Source: Nitrospinota bacterium (GTDB taxonomy: Bacteria > Nitrospinota_A > UBA7883). Taken from it: 64,000 nucleotides of DNA. Positions 12,096 through 64,000 of this stretch are shown here, in pieces. The translations under genes and the position numbers were made by a program. The notes beneath the pieces are model-generated. The model saw only the letters and a list, made by a program, of their open reading frames with translations, made no database searches and was not told where the DNA came from. The stretch covers positions 254,546-318,545 of the forward strand of contig CBDCXE010000002.1 of NCBI GenBank assembly GCA_965223725.1, given 5' to 3'. Position 1 is the stretch's first letter. Each line of letters begins with the position of its first letter.

Positions 12096-12974
12096 ATGAG
12101 TATGAAGCGCGTTTTTTTTGCTGTATCGACCTTCTTGATGATACTGGGCGCCACGCAGGCCAAGGCGCAACCTGCAGAAAGCTCAACAAACAAAGATGAG
12201 GGTCCACCACCGGTTATCGCGGCCTCTCCCGCCAAGCTGACGGTAAAAATCGGTTCCCGGTCCAGTGATAACGCCATCAAGCTGATAAACCTTAGCGACA
12301 AGCCTATCACGGTGCGTACCACTGTCAATAACTGGGACCTGGATGAAAGCAATGACTTGCGGGTTGTGGCGCCAACGCCGCAATCGCTGGATCAGTGGAT
12401 GATAATAAATCCTGTCAATTTCACGATAGAGCCGAAAAAAACGCAGACAGTTCGCTTCTCTATCAGACCACGCGCGAAACCGGAACCGGGAGAGCATCGC
12501 GGGATAATATTTTTCAACCAGCAGCTAACAGAAAAATCGACGGCAACCATCCAGTTCAAATTCCGGCTGGGCGTAATAGTATATGGGCTGGCAGGTGACG
12601 TGGTCCGGGATGGCGTGATGAACAAAATAAGCGTGGAGAGAGACGAAGAATCAGCCACCATGTTGTTTGATATCAGCAGCGTCGGCAACGCAAATGCCCG
12701 GATGGATGGGCAGTATAGCCTGTGGCGTAAGGCTGATTTTCCCAGCTCCGGTGAGCCGTCCCTGTATACCCTTGATGGGGAAGACAGAAACGTTCCAATA
12801 TCTGTGGTAAGTGTGGGCAAGCTGCCGAACACACCGGTGCTGGCCGGGACCAGACGAACGATCAAAAGGATTATAAAATTACCGAATGAAAAAGGAAACT
12901 ACATACTCTTTGCCAGGGGCGCGCTGGAGGGTAAATCCTTTAGCAAAAAATTTCCGGTTTCGATTACGAAATAG
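12096..12974 (+). CDS. Periplasmic pilus-assembly chaperone-like protein (PapD-like, two Ig-like domains)
   Basis: Signal peptide; N-domain pattern PAKLTVKIGS..IKLINLSDKPITVRTTV...QSLDQWMIINPVNFTIEPKKTQTVRFSI and second beta-sandwich half; position between subunit genes and a large OM protein. Confidence 0.45.
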   Translation: MSMKRVFFAVSTFLMILGATQAKAQPAESSTNKDEGPPPVIAASPAKLTVKIGSRSSDNAIKLINLSDKPITVRTTVNNWDLDESNDLRVVAPTPQSLDQWMIINPVNFTIEPKKTQTVRFSIRPRAKPEPGEHRGIIFFNQQLTEKSTATIQFKFRLGVIVYGLAGDVVRDGVMNKISVERDEESATMLFDISSVGNANARMDGQYSLWRKADFPSSGEPSLYTLDGEDRNVPISVVSVGKLPNTPVLAGTRRTIKRIIKLPNEKGNYILFARGALEGKSFSKKFPVSITK

Positions 12975-13018
12975 ACTTTATATTGAACTGACATTCCAGT
13001 AAACTTTCGGGCATTGTT

Positions 13019-15646
13019 GTGAATATACTGCATATCAATGATAAACCCATCATGAACAATGCTTTCATGATAGCTCAACTTTGTGGAGTATTGATCTTCC
13101 TGGCCCCCTACCTGGCAAACGCGGAAAAACTGAACAACCCTGTCCCGATACTGGTGGGCGCCTATGTTAATCAAAATTTGATCCGGAATATCGATATTGT
13201 AAAAGAAAGGGATGAGCATTGGATATTACTGGATGACCTGGCTGGTCTCACCGGTATCAAAGTAGCAGATAAAAATGATGAAAGTGAAGAAGACATTTTT
13301 GAGTTTGCGACACCCATCGGCAAAGCCAACTTGCCCGTTGACAAGCTCGCGATGCATCAGGGCCGATATTACGTATCAGCCCCGATGTTGAAAGATGCTT
13401 TTAACATCGGTATGTTGTTCAGCTCCCTCGATTTCGCGCTCTACCTGGATGTGCCTTGGCGGCCGGGCGCGCCAATGTATGATGAGCCGGGCGATGGTCA
13501 AAAGCCTGCGATAACGCCTGATATTCCCGCGCCCGACGGCTCATGGAGCTTTATTCGGTCGGCGAACGAGTATAACAAAGAGTCAAACGCGGTTCAGGAT
13601 TCGCAATACAATACGTTGGACACAGGCGGACGGGTAGCCTCTGGCGCATGGGTGCTGGGCCTTGAACGCCAGAATGGCAGAGATAACGATACTCGCCTGA
13701 GAAACTATTCATGGAGCCGGACCTTCGACCGCGCCGCCATCAGGGCAGGCTCCAACTACATAGACCTGAACCCGTTACTGCAAAACTACAGGTTTACTGG
13801 CGGGCAATACGCCTTTGACAACCGGGGTATCGAGCGATTCACAGATTTCGACACCAACCTGAACCTGGAAAGCTTCCTGTCTGATGATATAAGGAACCAG
13901 GAAAACATAATCCGGGATGATGGGCCACCCGGCGGTATCGCGGAATTGCGTATTAACGATGTGCAAGTGGCGCTGGTCCGCATAGGGCTCAACGGTCATT
14001 ACGAGTTTCGTGACATCCCGCGGATTCAAGGCGTATTTCAGACAATCAAAGTGTTTCTTTATGAGCGCAGTTTGGGCGAAGTGCCGTTGGCCACGCTCGA
14101 TTTCACCAGCACAATTTCCCTGGAAACATTGCCCGCCGGCGAGCTGTATATCCGAGCTGGCGCAGGAGATAAAGGAAACAGCCTGTACAGCGACGAGATT
14201 GGCATGGATAAAGGAACCGCCAGTTTTTTTAGAGGTCGTCACGGAGTCACAGACGGAATTACATTGCTGGGCATTGCTCAAAACGGAGTGGATGACCGGA
14301 CGGAAGGGCTTGCGGGCGCACGTATCGGCATCGGGCATAACTGGAACCTTGCGTTCGACGCCGCCGCCAATTCGGAAAACACCCGGGCATACGCCACGGA
14401 GTTGAGGGGTTTGGCTAAGAAATGGGATGTGAACTTGCGCGGCCGTTATTTCGATCGTGGATATCGCTCCAACATGAACAATGAAGAATATGACTATTAT
14501 TTGCGCTCCTTTTATCAGGTTGCGCCATCCTTTCGACTCGGCCTGTTCGGGCGCAAGGTGAAGGAAAATGATCTGGACGAGCTGAACTATTTGAAACCCG
14601 GGTTCAACTGGAGACCGGGCCCCAGCTTTCTGGCCAGCGCAATCCCCAATATTGACGGAGAGTACAGGATTTCCGCATACTACTATTTAAGCCCTTCCAA
14701 TTATCTTTCTATATTTTATGAACAGGAATACTATACAGCCCTGTTCGATATGGGGTTATCTGAATACCTGAATTTCCGGCTGGGCTACGAAAATGATCGG
14801 GAAATAAAAAAAGACTTTTTTCTGGGGCAAATATACTGGTATCCATTTGAAAGCCAGAACGACTACTTTCAGGCAGGGGTCACTAACAACCTTGAAGATA
14901 CTGGATTTCTGGTCTCCTGGAACAAAATTGTGACGCCCGGTATCGAATTTTCGGTGGAATATGATGAGAAATACCGGATATTCGCCGGGGATGAAAAAAG
15001 AAGCCATTTTTTCGCAAGGTTAAGGGTCGATTTTGCTAATACCGGAAAGCGGCTGGCGCCGGTCGACAACCGGTATGTTAATTTTACCCGGGGTGGGATA
15101 TCAGGCGCCATCTATGATGAACAAGGCAATAAACTGAACATTGATGATTTGTCTGTGCGTGTCAATGGCTTTACCCTGGCCCAACGGGGCGCTTCCGCAG
15201 GGAACTTTTATGTTGGTATGCTCCGCCCAGGGGTTTATACAGTGGAACTGGATGAAGAAAAACTGCCGATCGAGCTTGTGCCGGCGCAACGAAGCTATGC
15301 TGTGGAAGTCGCCGGGCTGGCGGTGACAGAGGTAAATTTCACTGTCCGGGCAGAGTATGGGTTTGCCGGTCAAGTGACTTCATCTAATCAGGAGCCGGTG
15401 GCAAACGCGTTTATCCAGGTTCGGGACGCATCTGGTCAGCCTGTAACCAGCGGTATTACAGATCAATTCGGTTATTACCGGGTGGATGGACTTGTCGCTG
15501 GCGAATATACCGCCACATGCGCCCATGTAAATGGCGAAGCATTGCCGGAACCGCATCCCGTGATCCAGGTTCAAGTCACAGATGACTACCTTTTCGATCA
15601 GGACCTCTCCATCACTCTGCCCGACGCCCCGCCTCCGGCGGAATAG
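13019..15646 (+). CDS. Large outer-membrane usher-like protein with C-terminal beta-sandwich (carboxypeptidase-regulatory-like) domains
   Basis: 875 aa; N-terminal signal/TM; long alternating-hydrophobic beta-barrel region; C-terminal Ig/transthyretin-like modules (FIQVRDASGQPVTSGITDQFGYYRVDGLVAGEYTATC); gene order subunit-subunit-chaperone-usher. Confidence 0.4.
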   Translation: MNILHINDKPIMNNAFMIAQLCGVLIFLAPYLANAEKLNNPVPILVGAYVNQNLIRNIDIVKERDEHWILLDDLAGLTGIKVADKNDESEEDIFEFATPIGKANLPVDKLAMHQGRYYVSAPMLKDAFNIGMLFSSLDFALYLDVPWRPGAPMYDEPGDGQKPAITPDIPAPDGSWSFIRSANEYNKESNAVQDSQYNTLDTGGRVASGAWVLGLERQNGRDNDTRLRNYSWSRTFDRAAIRAGSNYIDLNPLLQNYRFTGGQYAFDNRGIERFTDFDTNLNLESFLSDDIRNQENIIRDDGPPGGIAELRINDVQVALVRIGLNGHYEFRDIPRIQGVFQTIKVFLYERSLGEVPLATLDFTSTISLETLPAGELYIRAGAGDKGNSLYSDEIGMDKGTASFFRGRHGVTDGITLLGIAQNGVDDRTEGLAGARIGIGHNWNLAFDAAANSENTRAYATELRGLAKKWDVNLRGRYFDRGYRSNMNNEEYDYYLRSFYQVAPSFRLGLFGRKVKENDLDELNYLKPGFNWRPGPSFLASAIPNIDGEYRISAYYYLSPSNYLSIFYEQEYYTALFDMGLSEYLNFRLGYENDREIKKDFFLGQIYWYPFESQNDYFQAGVTNNLEDTGFLVSWNKIVTPGIEFSVEYDEKYRIFAGDEKRSHFFARLRVDFANTGKRLAPVDNRYVNFTRGGISGAIYDEQGNKLNIDDLSVRVNGFTLAQRGASAGNFYVGMLRPGVYTVELDEEKLPIELVPAQRSYAVEVAGLAVTEVNFTVRAEYGFAGQVTSSNQEPVANAFIQVRDASGQPVTSGITDQFGYYRVDGLVAGEYTATCAHVNGEALPEPHPVIQVQVTDDYLFDQDLSITLPDAPPPAE

Positions 15647-57505: not shown

Positions 57506-58003
57506 ATGAATATAAAAAACATTTTAACATATACAATTATCGCCGCCGGGGTCGTGGCATTGTTGATGGGCTATGACGCCGGGCCGGAGGGCCCGTCCGG
57601 CGGGTATGTGGTGGATGTGTTCGACGGTGATACCATACTGGTGGATACCGGCGCCAAAAAAATGAAAGTGCGCCTGCTGGGGATAGACACACCAGAGAAA
57701 AAAGGACCATATACAAAAGCGGAAGCAGGCGGCGCAGAAGCCAGCCGCAGAGCCCGGGAGCTGGCGTTGGAGCAGGAGATTGATCTTCAGTATGGCTCCG
57801 ATTATATATGGGACAAATATGGCAGACTGCTGGCCTATGTGGTTCTGCCAGATGGGCGGGCAATGAACGAAATCCTGTTAAAGGAGGGCCTTGCAAAGGT
57901 CTATCGCAGGTCGGATCATGACGAGAGGGATCGCTATCTCCATCTGGAGGAAAAGGCGCGTCGTGCCTGCCTGGGGTTATGGAAGAAGAGCTGTAAACGG
58001 TAA
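57506..58003 (+). CDS. Thermonuclease (staphylococcal nuclease homologue)
   Basis: VVDVFDGDTILVDTGAKKMKVRLLGIDTPE...YGRLLAYV SNase catalytic blocks; N-terminal TM/signal. Confidence 0.8.
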   Translation: MNIKNILTYTIIAAGVVALLMGYDAGPEGPSGGYVVDVFDGDTILVDTGAKKMKVRLLGIDTPEKKGPYTKAEAGGAEASRRARELALEQEIDLQYGSDYIWDKYGRLLAYVVLPDGRAMNEILLKEGLAKVYRRSDHDERDRYLHLEEKARRACLGLWKKSCKR

Positions 58004-58004
58004 A

Positions 58005-59012
58005 CTATTCCAGCTGGCTCTGTTTCAGTTTCTCCAACCCCTCTTGCTCCGGGAAACCGAAGAGCATGTATATGATCCCGCCGAATACCACCAGCGCGAT
58101 ACCAATACCGAACACACACAACGACAGGCTGATTGCCTGATCCGCGCTCATGCCCACGTGCCCGAACAGCAGCACATAGCCGCCCTCGCGCACGCCGATG
58201 CCGGAGATCGATACCGGTATAAGGGTGATCGCCGTGATTATAGGCACGAACACACAAAGCGTGATCGGGTCCACATCGATCCGCAACGCCAATGACATCA
58301 CATAGACTATAAGTATCCGGTTGATCTGGACCAGCAGAGCGCCCAGCACAGCAGGGATCAGCGAGTCTATATTGCCTATATAATGTTTCAATGCTTCGTA
58401 CAACGATTCCAGCTTCGCATAGAAATTTTGATATCCAAACCTGTCTGTTATTCCTTTCGCCAGCCGCATCACCGATTTGGCGAACAGGATCGCGATCACA
58501 CCCGCCAGGAACCCGGTCACCAGCCCCTTTGTTATGGCCGACATCATCGGCGTGTCCGGCAACAGGTCAGAGAACATAACCGCAGAGAAAAACGCGATGG
58601 TGAACAGCACCACATAGCCAATGAGCCGGAATATGAACAGCGATGAGAGCGCCTCGGACTTGCTGCCGATATATTTCGACAGGCCCAGTATCTTCACGAA
58701 ATCCGGCCCGGCGGAGGAGGGAAAGATAAAGCCGATATAGTTCGACACGAACACGATCTGTAGCATTTTCATCAGCGGCGTCCTTTTGTCCCGGGTGGCG
58801 ATCATGCCGTTCCATGCGATGCAGACGACCACCTGCTCCAGAAATATCATGAGTATCCCCAGCAATAGCCAGCCCGGTTTGGCGGCCATGAGGGTGGCCG
58901 CGATCTTCTGTAGCTCTGCGTGGGTGACCAGGGCGGCGATGATCGTCAGGGAGATAGCCCAACGCATCCATTTGGGCAGGCCTTTGCTTTTCGGCGTATC
59001 ACTATCTGTCAA
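58005..59012 (-). CDS. UPF0104 / lysylphosphatidylglycerol-synthase-TM-like (flippase-like) membrane protein
   Basis: About 8 TM; N-terminal GLPKWMRWAISLTIIAALVTHAELQKIAATL typical of YbhN/UPF0104. Confidence 0.55.
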   Translation of the reverse strand: MTDSDTPKSKGLPKWMRWAISLTIIAALVTHAELQKIAATLMAAKPGWLLLGILMIFLEQVVVCIAWNGMIATRDKRTPLMKMLQIVFVSNYIGFIFPSSAGPDFVKILGLSKYIGSKSEALSSLFIFRLIGYVVLFTIAFFSAVMFSDLLPDTPMMSAITKGLVTGFLAGVIAILFAKSVMRLAKGITDRFGYQNFYAKLESLYEALKHYIGNIDSLIPAVLGALLVQINRILIVYVMSLALRIDVDPITLCVFVPIITAITLIPVSISGIGVREGGYVLLFGHVGMSADQAISLSLCVFGIGIALVVFGGIIYMLFGFPEQEGLEKLKQSQLE

Positions 59013-59045
59013 AGGTAATCCTCAATATATACTCTCTGATGTAAA

Positions 59046-59099
59046 CGGATAAGTATATATCAACTGCCATGGGCAGTCCAAACGCCATGGGCGGCCCAA
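59046..59099 (+). repeat. Three degenerate 18-bp tandem units in the intergenic region
   Basis: gccatgggcagtccaaac / gccatgggcggcccaaac / gctatgccagcccggaac. Confidence 0.5.
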
Positions 59100-59210
59100 A
59101 CGCTATGCCAGCCCGGAACGGACTGACGCGCTTGCAAAGTTCATTTCCTGTCACGCCGGGCGCTTTACGCACTAGCAGGATTGCTGGCGATGGCCGCGCC
59201 GTTTATCCGG

Positions 59211-60302
59211 TCACGGTTTTTGGTCCGTGAAAGCTGCTTTAATTCTTTTGGCAAGGTAATGAAACAGTCCTTTATCCTTCAGTTTGTCTAAATATATTTT
59301 TTTCCGCTCTGGCTTATGGAACAAACGGGCGATCACGCTGCTATAGTAATGAATCAGGTAGTAAACACCATACACAAAACGGTTCGACATACTTGCCTGA
59401 TGCAACTTAACAAAGTAGAAATTGCGGATTGCGGATCGGCTGACCTGCGCAGGGGTGGGTATATTAAACAGTTTTGCGGCGATGGCCAGATAAGCGTTCA
59501 TTGCGCCAGCTTCCCCTGCTCTTTCCAATCTGCTCCGTATAAACTCCCAATCGATTTTACTGCCATGGACTTCCTGGAACAAAACCATATCGTACATCTG
59601 TTGCATATAGTTCATATCAAGAAACCCATGATGCAACTGGGCATGGACGATATTATGGAGAACCCGGGAGTCGACAGAAGGTATGAGCATCGTCACCCCT
59701 TCGGTTTCATAAAGGGACGAGCTGTCCATTATCCCTTTGGCAGGAAGAATATCGCTGTATTGAACAGTGACTATGTCTCTGTGATGAACCTCCACCACAG
59801 CCTCATAATCATCATGATAAAAAGGGTCCAGGTGATGCTCCAGGTTGTCCTCCCGGTCGCATTTATAGCCAGCCGCCTTCATCGCTTCTACACAATCGGC
59901 GATCCTATCCATCGGAACCAGAACATCGATATCGCCCATCGTCCGCAGGCCCGGCTCTTCGTACAGTCCATCGAAAACATTGGCCATACCTTTAAGTAAT
60001 AACGGTTGAACATCCACAGCGTTGAGTATTCGGCACAAACCGATGGCCTGGCCGGCCAGGTTCCTGTTGCGCATGCTGTTCAGCTCGAAAATGCCTTCGA
60101 AATAGTCGCGGATATCCTCCGGCAGGCCGCCAAGGAGCCCACGCCGTTTCAATGACCAGTAAAACGCAGGGGCCAGCAGATAATGGGTGGAGCACTCGAT
60201 GACGCCGGGCCAATCGTCTATGCATTCCACCTTACGGCCCAGCCCTGCCCGATCTTCCTGAAACGAAAGAACGGAGCATATAAATCGGAGTGTTTTATAC
60301 AT
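59211..60302 (-). CDS. Uncharacterised nucleotidyltransferase (PF14907/NTP_transf_5-like)
   Basis: Pol-beta-type NTase motif RTMGDIDVLVPMDRIAD (G[SD]..D.D); start refined to MYKTLRF, 2 nt after the stop of the PqqD-HprK gene. Confidence 0.55.
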   Translation of the reverse strand: MYKTLRFICSVLSFQEDRAGLGRKVECIDDWPGVIECSTHYLLAPAFYWSLKRRGLLGGLPEDIRDYFEGIFELNSMRNRNLAGQAIGLCRILNAVDVQPLLLKGMANVFDGLYEEPGLRTMGDIDVLVPMDRIADCVEAMKAAGYKCDREDNLEHHLDPFYHDDYEAVVEVHHRDIVTVQYSDILPAKGIMDSSSLYETEGVTMLIPSVDSRVLHNIVHAQLHHGFLDMNYMQQMYDMVLFQEVHGSKIDWEFIRSRLERAGEAGAMNAYLAIAAKLFNIPTPAQVSRSAIRNFYFVKLHQASMSNRFVYGVYYLIHYYSSVIARLFHKPERKKIYLDKLKDKGLFHYLAKRIKAAFTDQKP

Positions 60303-60304
60303 GT

Positions 60305-61477
60305 TCAGTCGTTGAACATTTCTCGCACGATCCCAAGGGCGCCGTCGAGCGCGCCGAAATGGAGGATGTATGTTGGCGTGTTTTCGACCCATTCGACCAG
60401 CCTTTTCACCCTTGCCGGTTCCGAGGATATTATGCTGCTAGAATCGGAGATCAGCCGCAACGTTTCAAGCTTCGATATCGGCTCCAGCTTCGCTTCGGCG
60501 CCCTCTTCCCGGGCCGGGAAAACGATGGCCTTCACCGGGACCATGTTTTTGCCTTGCTGGAGGGTTGACGCCGGTATATACCGGGCCTCGTTGCCGTCGT
60601 AACGGTCCTGGATCGGCAACGAATATATATCCGGATAGTATGGTTTGATCACATCCCAGCTACCGCTTTTCAGGCAGATATTCAACGGGACAGAGATCAT
60701 ATCCAGCGTATCGAAGCTGACCGGTGTGATATCGTCGCTGAAGTAATCCAACCCCAGTGTCAATAACGCTGCGGTGAGGGTGCTTTTGCCCTGCTTGTAA
60801 TAACCCGGGAATATAATGCCCGACCCGCCGTCACTGACCGATGACGCGTGCAGATAGACCAGTATGCCCAGGCCTGGATACTGCAATGCGATGATCTCGG
60901 TGAACAACCGGTCAACAGCCCTGCTCAGGTCGCTATCTACGATCACTCCCTCGCCATCGCGCTCCACAACGTACCATCCTTCGCATTCAAAAACCTTTAT
61001 ACGATGGCTCAAAGCTATTTTATTTTCGGTCGCTCTGGCTAACCGGGAGTGAAGTATCGATTTGAACGCCTCACCATGATAGCTGATCCGAAACTTTTTG
61101 TTGTTCATCAGATAGTCGAACTCGTAATCCGCCGCGCCGGCGGGAGGGCTGATGGTTTTTTGGTCCACAGCGCTGGCAATGGACTGTTTCAAGTCCCCGT
61201 CCGGTTTTTTCAAAAAGCCTTCCCTGTGCCAGCTATCGATGGCCATTTTCACATCCCGCTCGGCGTCCTCCCTTTCAACCGGGTAAACCTTCGTCATATG
61301 GCGCGCGATCCGGTCGATATCTGCCTCTTCTGACAACAGCTCCCAAATCAACCGGGCCGTGGAGTTCAGGGTGAACACCTTCTCTGCCTTTATGTTGCTG
61401 ACCACCAGCCCGTCCTCCAGTGGGACAGAAAAATAGTCGGCGGGGTCGATCATGAATTTGTCCTGGGTCATATTCAC
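60305..61477 (-). CDS. PqqD-like RiPP-recognition-element domain fused to HPr kinase/phosphorylase C-terminal-like P-loop domain
   Basis: N-terminal LVVSNIKAEKVFTLNSTARLIWELLSEEADIDRIARHMTKVYPVEREDAERDVKMAIDSWHREGFL (PqqD consensus); C-terminal P-loop GYYKQGKSTLTAALL (HprK_C-like). Confidence 0.6.
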   Translation of the reverse strand: MNMTQDKFMIDPADYFSVPLEDGLVVSNIKAEKVFTLNSTARLIWELLSEEADIDRIARHMTKVYPVEREDAERDVKMAIDSWHREGFLKKPDGDLKQSIASAVDQKTISPPAGAADYEFDYLMNNKKFRISYHGEAFKSILHSRLARATENKIALSHRIKVFECEGWYVVERDGEGVIVDSDLSRAVDRLFTEIIALQYPGLGILVYLHASSVSDGGSGIIFPGYYKQGKSTLTAALLTLGLDYFSDDITPVSFDTLDMISVPLNICLKSGSWDVIKPYYPDIYSLPIQDRYDGNEARYIPASTLQQGKNMVPVKAIVFPAREEGAEAKLEPISKLETLRLISDSSSIISSEPARVKRLVEWVENTPTYILHFGALDGALGIVREMFND

Positions 61478-61507
61478 TTACTTCTTGTTATATACACCCA
61501 GTATACG

Positions 61508-62680
61508 CTATCCGCCTCTTCTTGACAGCGCAGAGCCGGTTATCAAAATGACCAGCGTGCCGACCACAACCGTCATGAATGGGTGCATCGGGTTGACGAT
61601 CGGCTGATTCGGCGCGATGTAGGTGTAAATCCCGGGCAGGATTATCAGCTCGAACATGGCGAACACGACGATCAGCATGGAGACCATAACCGGCAACACC
61701 GCCCGCGCCCTGATGGCCCCAGCCGTTGCAATGGCGGCGGACACACCGCAGATCGACACGCCGGACGAGAGTACAGCCGACGCCGCCCTGGGCAGATTGA
61801 AAAACCTTCGGCCGATCCAGTAGGTGATTGGCCAGAAAAACATGTAGGCGACAATCGTGGCGCACATGCCGGCGAACGCCAGCTCGAAGGTGAAGCCGGC
61901 CGCTTTCATTGACATCAGGCCGATTTTGATGCCCAGGTATACGATGGCGGTCTTGATGAACCATTCCGGCTTGGCCGCCTCTTTCAGAAACGCGGCGAAC
62001 CCTTTGAAGATGTTGCCGATGATCAGCCCCACAGCCAGCGCCAGCATGAAAGAAAACCCGCCGCCAAACTGCAGCCCGCCTTTCAGGCGTTTGGCATGCT
62101 TCGCCTCGTCCACAGCTTTGGCCGCGGTCTGCATGTCTGGCACATCGCCCTTTTTGACATCGACCCCCATGGCCAGCAGCGCCTTGTTAATCTCCTTGGT
62201 GCACTTGGTCACTTTGGAGGTGCAGTAGACATCGGGGCCGTATATCTCCGGCTGGTTTTGCGATTGCGAAGTTTTGAGCGCTTTAAAGTGCGCCTCGTGG
62301 CCGATGATCCAGCAGGCCCAGGTGATGAAGAATATAACGGTCCAGCCCATGAAGAATTTTTTCAGATCCAGCTTCATGAAAAAGGCGCCGATCATGGTCA
62401 GTACGGTAAACACGGCATAGGTCATAAACAACGAGCCGAGCGGGCCGATGCTTTTCCATCCCTTACCCGCCGGCGCCAGCACATTGGCCCAGGAGAATTC
62501 GCCCCAGACCCAGGTTTTGGTTTTTGCCATCCAGCCCACCATATCCAGTCCTACTATAGATGTGAGGCCAGCCAGAAAAAGGGCCAGCCCCAGCCAGACC
62601 GCCCACCAGTCCTCCGATGTGGTCATCCCCGAATACCATTTTCTGTTTGTCTCACTCATTGTTCCTCCTTGTTTATTCAA
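61508..62680 (-). CDS. YeiH/UPF0324-family inner-membrane protein with a central Cys-containing soluble insertion
   Basis: LSSGVSICGVSAAIATAGAIRA block typical of UPF0324; about 10 TM; about 80 aa hydrophilic insertion with three Cys (..VYCTSKVTKCTKE..). Confidence 0.55.
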   Translation of the reverse strand: MNKQGGTMSETNRKWYSGMTTSEDWWAVWLGLALFLAGLTSIVGLDMVGWMAKTKTWVWGEFSWANVLAPAGKGWKSIGPLGSLFMTYAVFTVLTMIGAFFMKLDLKKFFMGWTVIFFITWACWIIGHEAHFKALKTSQSQNQPEIYGPDVYCTSKVTKCTKEINKALLAMGVDVKKGDVPDMQTAAKAVDEAKHAKRLKGGLQFGGGFSFMLALAVGLIIGNIFKGFAAFLKEAAKPEWFIKTAIVYLGIKIGLMSMKAAGFTFELAFAGMCATIVAYMFFWPITYWIGRRFFNLPRAASAVLSSGVSICGVSAAIATAGAIRARAVLPVMVSMLIVVFAMFELIILPGIYTYIAPNQPIVNPMHPFMTVVVGTLVILITGSALSRRGG

Positions 62681-62959
62681 TGGCGGCTTCTTACAGCTCC
62701 AGAATCACAAGCCGGTTGAAATAGTGGTATGCGTATTGCCTGATCCAGGTCGGTATCGTCGAATAATCGAAAGCCATGAACACAGAGACCGTTGCGCCTT
62801 TCGGATAACGGCCGGAATCTATGAGCGCCTGTTTCAGGTCCGTGTCCAGTTGGGGTAAGGTCCTGCCCTTTGCTGTCACGTTGTTTTCACAAGTGGCGAT
62901 CCAGATTCGGCCATCGTCGATCAGGGTCGCCTGCAGGTCAGCCTTCACTGTATGCCGCC

Positions 62960-63157
62960 CTACTGGTTCAGAATAGTCATGTTTACTATCACGCCCAGGA
63001 TGACCAACGCAACAAAACCGATCCCCAGGCTGTAGAGCACCAGTTTGCTTTCCCATGGCTCCCACGGCTCCGGGTTGGACAACGACTCGTCAGAGTCGAT
63101 GATTTCCGTCGACAACCCGCCAGTCGACGCCGATTTGTTTTGTTCATTGCTTTCCAT
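62960..63157 (-). CDS. Small (65 aa) membrane protein with acidic N-terminal region and C-terminal TM helix
   Basis: Near-consensus SD AAAGGAG 7 nt upstream of ATG; MESNEQNKSASTGGLSTEIIDSDESLSNPEPWEPWES then TM LVLYSLGIGFVALVILGVIVNMTIL. Confidence 0.5.
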   Translation of the reverse strand: MESNEQNKSASTGGLSTEIIDSDESLSNPEPWEPWESKLVLYSLGIGFVALVILGVIVNMTILNQ

Positions 63158-63213
63158 ACGGTTTCTCCTTTTAAGTGTCAGATTGAGGTTTATTCGACAG
63201 CGCCCTGATTCTC

Positions 63214-63978
63214 CTATTTTTTCGCGCCTAGTTTTTTGAGCAGAGCCCGCGCCTTTTCTTTATACTTTTCATCCAGGTGATCGATAACCGACAACTCACC
63301 TACTTTTTCCAGTTCGGCAATACTTTTTTCCTTATCGCTCATCGCCTCGTAGGTTTTGGCCAGCTCGAAATGGGATCGAAGATAATCAGGGTTAAGTTCG
63401 ATCGCCCTTTTAAGATGTTTAACCGAGTCTTCGTTGCTACCCTCCGGCAGTCCGCCAAAAAATGCCTTGGCAAACTTTTTCAGGAACCAGTTCAGGTTGG
63501 CCACTTCCCGGTTATAAACGCCCAGCAGCAGATGCGCCCTGAATTGGTCCGGGTTCATCTTCAACGATTTTTTGGCGTTTTGCTCGATGTTTCTGGAAAG
63601 TTTCACCTTCTCCTTACCGCCGCGAAACTGCGCCAACCGCCCACTGGCCAGCGCTACGTAGTAAAACGACTCCGCCCGGTCCGGGAATTTTTCCGCCATG
63701 GTGTTGGCCAGCTCCACCGCTTGCTCATACAACTCTCCCGATTCTTTCGAGTCCATATCCTCGCCACTGTTCACATAAGCCGCAATGGTCTTCATCATAG
63801 CTTCGAAATTGTCCGGATCAGCTTCATGCGCCATTTTGTATTGCTTCAGCGCTTCGACGTTTTGGAAACTGGCATGGAACCGGTCACCCGCCTGGATCAG
63901 AGAAGCGGTGTCATCGGCATGGGATGCGGCGCTGTGAAGCAGCAACGCCGTAGCAATTGATGTGATAAAAATTCTCAT
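63214..63978 (-). CDS. Secreted tetratricopeptide-repeat (TPR) protein
   Basis: Signal peptide; several 34-aa TPR-like helix pairs (AEKFPDRAESFYYVALASGRLAQF..., NPDQFRAHLLLGVYN..., NPDYLRSHFELAKTYEAM...). Confidence 0.65.
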   Translation of the reverse strand: MRIFITSIATALLLHSAASHADDTASLIQAGDRFHASFQNVEALKQYKMAHEADPDNFEAMMKTIAAYVNSGEDMDSKESGELYEQAVELANTMAEKFPDRAESFYYVALASGRLAQFRGGKEKVKLSRNIEQNAKKSLKMNPDQFRAHLLLGVYNREVANLNWFLKKFAKAFFGGLPEGSNEDSVKHLKRAIELNPDYLRSHFELAKTYEAMSDKEKSIAELEKVGELSVIDHLDEKYKEKARALLKKLGAKK

Positions 63979-64000
63979 GACTAAAGCCCTCCAAATTTAC

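Follow-up and report, generated by a model that had tools for sequence, protein, structure and literature searches.

What does an RRE-kinase modify when it is encoded among membrane proteins, apart from the genes of a recognizable peptide pathway? The right end of a 64,000-nt stretch of the genome of a Nitrospinota bacterium (contig CBDCXE010000002.1, positions 254,546 to 318,545; this whole stretch is "the window", and positions are counted from its first letter) raises this question. Here, a gene for a PqqD-like RiPP recognition element (RRE; RiPP, peptide that is made on the ribosome and modified after translation) fused to an HprK-like kinase is followed by a gene for a nucleotidyltransferase-fold protein. 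A sequence-only reading of the window had proposed that the pair acts on a small membrane protein encoded nearby, and all the genes that it named are indeed present on the minus strand, at about the positions it gave. We lean, by a small margin of belief, towards the two genes (61471-59211, minus strand) being a two-gene peptide-tailoring module of the type found in the pathways of linear polyphosphorylated peptides (LPPs) and phosphorylated lasso peptides. The main novelty is that fused RRE-kinases of this family are encoded together with precursor peptides that resemble twin-arginine (Tat) signals, an association that is testable and of which we could not find a description. The two genes of the module are:

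61471-60305, minus strand: PqqD(RRE)-HprK-like kinase fusion, 388 aa (PF05402, 2e-13)
60302-59211, minus strand: PF14907 (NTP_transf_5) nucleotidyltransferase-fold protein, 363 aa (PF14907, 5.7e-38)

A fused RRE-kinase and its nucleotidyltransferase partner

The stop/start coupling of the two genes that had been noted previously is real: they lie 2 nt apart (TGAacATG, within ...gacTGAacATGtat...). The first gene encodes an RRE (approximately residues 10-90), a linker, and a P-loop kinase domain of the PEPCK/HPrK fold (approximately residues 110-388), and an AlphaFold2 model built from an alignment of 81 sequences is very confident (pLDDT 92.9, pTM 0.91). The N-terminal domain scores above the gathering threshold of PF05402 and has the winged-helix RRE fold. 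A profile of the same 81 sequences matches the lasso B1 RREs TbiB1 (2.6e-11), TfuB1 (2.6e-8) and PbaB1 (4.5e-6), and the LPP RRE LppB (9x8z; 1.9e-7); its match to PqqD itself is far weaker (0.013). Residues N36 and D73 of the window protein align with N33 and D70 of LppB, two residues that, in the crystal structure of LppB with its leader, hold the tyrosine hydroxyl and the kink at the leader proline in place (Popov et al., Nat Commun 2026, PMC13381572).

For the kinase half, the previous assignment to HprK is right, though on other grounds than the model that had been named. The fold and similarity to TIGR04352 agree with it, but that model, PF07475 (Hpr_kinase_C), gave no match to the fusion even at E ≤ 1; likeness to Hpr(Ser) kinase is seen at the level of the fold and in the P-loop region, where the family profile matches a Coxiella Hpr(Ser) kinase at 4e-5. 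The best curated match is TIGR04352 ("HprK-related kinase A"), which covers residues 207-386 (8.6e-20) with 71 bits against a cut-off of 200 bits. Four relatives of the fusion were also matched by this model (1e-15 to 6e-22); since all scores (58-78 bits) are well below the cut-off, we consider the fused family to be a sister group of TIGR04352 rather than part of it. The TIGR04352 kinase of the HPr-rel-A system has a separate PqqD-family partner. The pairing of PqqD with an HprK-like kinase is a shared theme, but the two are fused in the family described here, and no TIGR04353-type match is listed for the RRE. The Walker A sequence is GYYKQGKST (G228, K229). The fusion keeps the family-invariant residues W43, H208, G228, K229 and G240, and the near-invariant residues N36, W81 and D246; conservation of the five invariant residues and of D246 fits a Walker-A kinase.

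The second gene belongs to PF14907, as had been predicted, matching the full profile with 131 bits against a gathering cut-off of 31.2 bits. Its pol-beta-type signature is intact (K104-G105, R120, D124-x-D126, E171-x-H173), and these columns are invariant in an alignment of eight module-linked PF14907 homologues. The closest comparison for both genes comes from a 3.1-kb contig (L002), whose PF14907 protein is 57% identical to that of the window, with nonsynonymous divergence (pN) of 0.25 and synonymous divergence (pS) of 0.70. Across both module genes, pN is 0.25 and pS is 0.70-0.78; pN is far below pS, indicating that purifying selection has acted on both genes since the window and L002 diverged.

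A word-indexed homologue search with the single protein found only three matches, whereas an exhaustive profile search revealed a large family: 9028 cluster representatives at E ≤ 1e-3, 3310 at E ≤ 1e-10, and 836 at E ≤ 1e-30, each representing a cluster at 50% identity. Nearly all of the top 150 representatives align along almost the whole profile; given the size of the family, the fused architecture is common rather than rare. We gathered 15 fusion-bearing loci from approximately 10 independent lineages, comprising Nitrospinota, Alphaproteobacteria and Acidobacteriota metagenome-assembled genomes (MAGs), together with metagenomes; a scan of metagenome loci with a three-sequence alignment gave two loci. 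Two further loci that lack the fusion gene (L012 and L013) served as controls. A PF14907 gene lies adjacent to the fusion gene, or within 5 kb of it, in L002, L004-L009 and L014-L017, in either gene order; it is absent from L010 and L011, and the contigs of L001 and L003 end before its presence can be assessed. The other neighbours differ from lineage to lineage, and include genes for TctC, EPSP synthase, LexA, endonuclease V, purine genes and glycosyltransferases. Across these varied surroundings the pair reappears as a self-contained module.

Neither an Asn-synthetase-like cyclase (C) nor a transglutaminase-like protease (B2) is found within 8-10 kb on either side in the annotated related loci. 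The same applies to the window, in agreement with the sequence-only reading: there is no such cyclase among the ten largest open reading frames (ORFs) or the cluster genes, and no such protease among the cluster genes. Likewise, no SpI-like (SipW-type) peptidase or MsbA-like exporter is encoded at 57.5-64 kb of the window or in the gene tables of the related loci. The suggestion that the pair stands alone is supported by its recurrence in varied neighbourhoods without lasso C and B2 genes, and has a precedent in the LPP pathway (PMC13381572).

Tat-signal-like peptides encoded beside the fusion genes

We compared all small ORFs around the fusion genes with one another, and this all-against-all comparison yielded a family of short peptides. 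Each begins with an acidic stretch, which is followed by the conserved block ARRxALxKMGKFAAYTAPxLLxLLxA(K/T); the tail is short and variable, with Cys, Pro or Gly often abundant, and in an L010 example it ends ...GGGPGRDACRYNAATNSCYCSPGIGCCHGKIPPKC. A hidden Markov model (HMM) of the family has 26 matches with E < 1e-3 in 324 kb, all of which share the strand of the fusion gene and lie no more than 2417 nt away, with most being within 830 nt. Matches occur in 14 of the 15 fusion-bearing loci, with one to eight ORFs in each; the exception is L002, on its 3.1-kb contig. Neither of the control loci has a match.

Two features of the conserved block stand out. First, YTAPxL has the spacing of the [Y/W]xxPx[L/V/I/F/A] motif that is read by lasso and LPP RREs; in distant members of the family the Tyr is lost and AP..LLL.AS is retained. 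Second, the arrangement of RRx[FA]LKK, a hydrophobic stretch and AxA is of the Tat-signal type, and both peptides of L016 pass the cut-off of the curated TAT_signal_seq model (24.4 and 22.7 bits, with a cut-off of 16.7). Only Tat-signal models were matched when the peptides were scanned against Pfam and NCBIfam. Tandem arrays of four to eight peptide genes in L004 and L005 encode near-identical leaders followed by divergent tails (...GATPH, ...HVVC, ...GPHPC). Taken together, this comparative evidence suggests that the substrates of the relatives of the fusion protein are small Tat-signal-like peptides.

Some of these loci have additional features. In two loci from alphaproteobacterial MAGs (L004, 6212-14850; L005, 7800-14700), fused and split PqqD/HprK-like pairs occur together with a PF14907 gene. 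In Acidobacteriota (L014, 1774-9449; L015, 1613-9219), a Tat-like precursor with a Gly/Ser-rich tail is encoded near an MNIO (MbnB/TglH-family) enzyme, in a cluster that also encodes a 482-aa PqqD-HprK-like protein, a YcaO-ThiF fusion, a nitroreductase and a PF14907 protein; the RRE-kinase may have been recruited there into more elaborate RiPP pathways. In L006, a gene for a tyrosine recombinase/integrase (12946-14211, minus strand) lies directly downstream of the fusion-PF14907 pair, which hints at mobility of the module.

Relation to known pathways and a proposed mechanism

The closest described counterpart is the LPP pathway of Bacillota, the core set of which comprises the precursor LppA, the HprK-like kinase LppK, the discrete RRE LppB, the SpI-like peptidase LppS, an MsbA-like exporter and the NTP-transferase LppN, with no cyclase (Popov et al., Nat Commun 2026, PMC13381572). 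The LppA leader reads YxxPxVLxHQxIxFETxxS; LppK attaches as many as four phosphates to Ser3 of the LppA core, LppS removes the leader with the assistance of the RRE, and no activity was observed for LppN (PMC13381572). The family described here resembles this pathway in being cyclase-less, and in combining a lasso-B1-type RRE, a YxxPx[V/L]-type motif, an HprK-like kinase, which the window has, and an NTP-transferase; the coupled PF14907 protein of the window is a candidate counterpart of the uncharacterized LppN. There are also clear differences. The RRE is discrete in LPP pathways but fused to the kinase in the window, the SpI-like peptidase and MsbA-like exporter belong to the LPP set only, and the motif of the relatives' precursors is located inside a Tat-signal-like segment, with no further similarity to LppA. 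A search of the window for an ORF of the YxxPxVLxHQxIxFETxxS type, by HMM and regular expression, found none. Lastly, LPPs are stated to be restricted to Bacillota (PMC13381572), whereas the hosts of the fusion family are Gram-negative (Nitrospinota, Alphaproteobacteria and Acidobacteriota MAGs).

Phosphorylated lasso peptides offer a second comparison. In these pathways the linear precursor is phosphorylated by HPr-kinase homologues (PadeK for paeninodin, and ThcoK) ahead of further processing, and in the PsmK/PsmN pair of pseudomycoidin a nucleotidyltransferase-fold enzyme adds one or more hexoses to the phosphate (PMC8498205). An HPr-kinase homologue, a nucleotidyltransferase-fold enzyme and a lasso-B1-type RRE are common to both, but the macrolactam synthetase, the B2 protease and a lasso-type precursor were not found in the window or in the annotated related loci. 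In addition, lasso kinases target a C-terminal Ser, whereas the tails of the relatives' peptides end mostly in Cys, His, Pro or Val. Bufferins, which are MNIO-modified RiPPs with Sec signal peptides and are associated with MNIO and DUF2063 proteins (PMC11626156), are similar in that the precursor uses a general export signal rather than a dedicated exporter and peptidase; they differ in that their Sec signal is dispensable for modification, whereas here the presumed RRE motif is inside the Tat-like signal.

We propose that the RRE would dock a precursor through a YxxPxL-type motif in its leader, and that the kinase domain would phosphorylate a Ser or Thr close to this motif. The translationally coupled PF14907 enzyme could then decorate the phosphate or the peptide, comparable to the addition of hexose to phosphate in pseudomycoidin. 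In the relatives, the Tat-like leader would direct export and be cut by signal peptidase, such that general machinery would take the place of the LPP-type SpI peptidase and ABC exporter. For the window itself, the precursor would be encoded beyond position 64000 or elsewhere in trans, or would have been lost, and the module came to its present place when a rearrangement fused a YeiH-like gene with an SSF symporter gene's 3' end (see below). A more specific proposal, which we put forward tentatively and hold with less conviction than the existence of a peptide-tailoring module, is that the RRE-kinase reads YxxPxL, or the degenerate AP..LL, within the hydrophobic core of a Tat-type signal that doubles as a RiPP leader. 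The RRE-kinase might hold and modify the peptide before export, similar to a Tat proofreading chaperone, with the general Tat and signal peptidase machinery replacing a dedicated peptidase and exporter and the copy in the window acting on a precursor encoded in trans; the family might then constitute a large, apparently undescribed, Gram-negative class of RiPP-like pathways.

Several points weigh against a peptide-tailoring function for the window pair. As had been noted from the sequence, no precursor is obvious: the 64 kb contain no ORF of the precursor family (the best HMM match has E = 0.32, and four regular-expression patterns returned noise), and the same is true of L002, albeit within only 3.1 kb. 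Since many of the predicted cores have few or no Ser/Thr residues after the putative AxA cleavage site, the site of phosphorylation is unclear. The chemistry of PF14907 proteins is uncertain, given that LppN was inactive in the LPP study. Catalytic activity of the fused family members is predicted from sequence, structure and analogy. The selection seen in the comparison with L002 is older than the rearrangement and is no proof that the module is active at present. The module in L002 follows an SSF gene and overlaps its end, so the substrate of this clade may differ; as a clade, the window and L002 may stand apart from the other family members either in their substrate or in the place where it is encoded. 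Finally, our analysis covers the sequence up to position 64000.

If this reading of the family is correct, cyclase-less "phospho-RiPP" pathways would extend beyond Bacillota, to which they were recently reported to be confined, and would occur widely among Gram-negative phyla as a compact version with fused domains, amounting to hundreds of clusters at 50% identity. The leader would then be an export signal, linking RRE-guided modification with Tat/Sec export, and the peptide family would provide a precursor signature for genome mining that is absent from Pfam and NCBIfam. The claim of the sequence-only reading that this arrangement is undescribed needs to be divided. A cyclase-less pathway with an RRE, an HprK-like kinase and an NTP-transferase has already been demonstrated for the LPPs of Bacillota; by contrast, we found no description in the searchable literature of the fused RRE-kinase family with Tat-like precursors, and no paper that joins twin-arginine signals, RiPPs and RREs.

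A rearrangement junction and the genes around the module

The remaining features of the right end of the window are as follows:

63978-63214, minus strand: TPR protein with a signal-peptide-like N-terminus (TPR Pfam matches)
63157-62960, minus strand: 65-aa single-pass membrane protein, EPWEPWESKLVLYSLGIGFVALVILG... (gene call in public data, and homologues)
62948-62691, minus strand: DUF5395 protein, 85 aa, GTG start (PF17373, 1.9e-28)
62659-61508, minus strand: YeiH/UPF0324-family (Cons_hypoth698) gene, 383 aa (PF03601, 8e-14, profile positions 29-170 of 304 only)
61604-61536, minus strand: rearrangement junction inside the 3' end of the YeiH-like ORF (alignment with L002, and homology break)
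59012-58005, minus strand: LPG_synthase_TM/flippase-like (UPF0104) membrane protein (PF03706, 4e-36; TIGR00374, 2e-15)
57506-58003, plus strand: SNase gene, convergent with the cluster (PF00565, 7e-23)

Gene calls in public data are identical to four of the window products (the PF14907, YeiH-like, 65-aa and flippase-like proteins); the call for the fusion is 382 aa long, starting six codons later, and is 100% identical. These public counterparts are all singletons at 90% identity, and all are on one 340-kb contig.

The YeiH-like gene, which had been named as a neighbour of the module, is truncated and chimeric. Nearly all of the best 120 homologues listed are 476-634 aa long and align over 95% of the query, with the few shorter ones being mostly from very short contigs or labelled partial. 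The 383-aa window protein is approximately 160-180 aa shorter than its close homologues (487-566 aa), and it does not contain a complete PF03601 domain. Homology to full-length proteins breaks at residue 364 (nt 61568), and there is no trace anywhere in the window of the approximately 180 aa that are missing. Instead, the last 25 or so codons of the ORF (PIVNPMHPFMTVVVGTLVILITG...) correspond to the C-terminal end of a product whose gene, in L002, lies upstream of the fusion, with L002 positions 528-596 aligning to window positions 61604-61536 at 75%. That upstream gene encodes an SSF symporter (PF00474, 1.9e-15); an initial phmmer match had led us to regard it as YeiH-like, which was wrong, the similarity being only in the transplanted tail. 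A three-way protein comparison places the crossover at a shared P-[IV]-V-N (microhomology). DNA homology between L002 and the window extends from window position 61604 to the stop codon of the PF14907 gene and no further, stopping short of the flippase-like gene. In L002, the last 17 nt of the SSF symporter gene (1-645) are shared with the start of the fusion gene, and the 3.1-kb contig has no precursor ORF. We conclude that a block comprising the 3' end of an SSF gene, the fusion gene and the PF14907 gene was joined to a YeiH-like gene, destroying this transporter gene. As judged from these alignments, the window YeiH-like gene is probably inactivated, and it lies outside the kinase module. 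Because it was cut by the joining event itself, its adjacency to the fusion gene is a scar of rearrangement rather than operon design. A search for flanking repeats of the mobile-element type found none.

The genes on the other side of the junction have a history of their own. A trio comprising, from upstream to downstream, a 61-67-aa membrane protein (EPWEPWESKLV... followed by a transmembrane segment), a DUF5395 protein and a YeiH-like "sulfate exporter family" protein of approximately 545 aa is conserved in the control loci L012 (9277-11447) and L013 (9484-11632), where the full-length YeiH-like homologues are 78% and 73% identical to the window protein. The 65-aa window protein matches the 67- and 61-aa products encoded ahead of DUF5395 in these loci (phmmer, 1.1e-21 and 7.2e-14), and the 85-aa DUF5395 protein of the window, overlooked in the sequence-only reading, completes the set. 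These loci are sox (SoxYZ, SoxB-like) and dsr (DsrEFH, DsrC, DsrAB-like) loci, and they have no PqqD or HprK genes. This context suggests that the trio is a sulfur-compound transporter with two small accessory subunits; it is unrelated to the kinase module.

These observations bear directly on the proposal that the pair modifies the 65-aa protein or another of the flanking membrane proteins. The co-directional, tightly spaced genes and the Ser/Thr-rich, acidic N-terminus of the 65-aa protein made this an attractive idea, but we now consider it very improbable: the 65-aa protein belongs to a trio found in loci without PqqD or HprK, it has no [Y/W]xxP motif and no match to the precursor HMM, and the YeiH-like gene was cut by the same event that created the adjacency. 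Moreover, no homologue of the YeiH-like, UPF0104, 65-aa or TPR proteins is encoded beside the fusion gene in the other loci compared, so that the proposed functional embedding is not supported; the TPR gene is absent from loci related to either module, and neither it nor the flippase-like gene recurs with either of them. The result for the window is thus a corrective one: rearrangement put these membrane-protein genes beside the module by accident, and the 65-aa protein is part of another module, likewise uncharacterized, that is found in sulfur-metabolism loci.

The junction also argues against the module being the tail of an ordinary phosphorylated lasso cluster, with the C, B2 and precursor genes located just past the edge of the window. 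Lasso B1 proteins are what the RRE resembles most, tailoring of lasso peptides is known to involve HprK-like kinases and nucleotidyltransferases, and the stretch analysed ends at 64000. Nonetheless, of all the explanations considered, we find this the hardest to credit, since the transporter trio and the TPR gene, which lie between the module and the edge, have a separate past; the segment that the window has in common with L002 begins inside the SSF tail, meaning that the upstream context is not ancestral; and Asn_synthase- and transglutaminase-like genes are missing from the annotated related loci and the large window ORFs, as described above.

A less remote alternative, though still an improbable one, is that the rearrangement cut the module off from its precursor genes, leaving a functionless remnant that awaits decay. 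The window is the only fusion-bearing locus with ample flanks and no precursor beside the module, the scar of a rearrangement is clearly visible immediately upstream, and there are signs of mobility in the family, among them the tyrosine recombinase in L006. On the other hand, both ORFs are intact and retain all the family-invariant residues, and the 57%-identical relative likewise has the SSF-fusion-PF14907 arrangement with no peptide next to it, indicating that it is old and has been under purifying selection; as weaker evidence, there is a promoter-like site just upstream. We favour a peptide-tailoring module over a decaying one.

The flippase-like gene raises the possibility of a non-peptide substrate, with the pair, perhaps along with the flippase-like protein, taking part in the synthesis of envelope glycans or lipids, and the PqqD-like domain having some other role. 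This gene is 198 nt downstream of the PF14907 gene (59013-59210); the fusion gene of L001 is directly preceded by glycosyltransferase, epimerase and methyltransferase genes; and LPP and paeninodin clusters sit within capsule loci. We nevertheless regard such a role as quite unlikely, because the RRE retains peptide-binding residues and the lasso-B1 fold, precursor-like peptides accompany the fusion in nearly all of the loci, and most related loci lack glycan genes. Furthermore, conservation does not tie the flippase-like gene to the module: no homologue is found near the fusion in the other loci compared, and its membership of the kinase module is unproven. Translation in all frames of the 198-nt gap and of the tail of L002 revealed no plausible precursor and no mutual similarity.

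Upstream of the flippase-like gene, at 59061-59096, are two tandem, imperfect 18-nt repeats centred on CCATGG (CAACTGCCATGGGCAGTC and CAAACGCCATGGGCGGCC), adjoining a promoter-like site (59080-59052); the repeats may be an operator. An Rfam scan of 57.4-64 kb, including these repeats, gave no match. A PADLOC scan of the fusion-PF14907 pair matched no defence system, whereas the convergent SNase homologue, which is of the secreted type, also matches the PADLOC candidate defence protein C3a212 ("SNc+LTD"; 1e-21).

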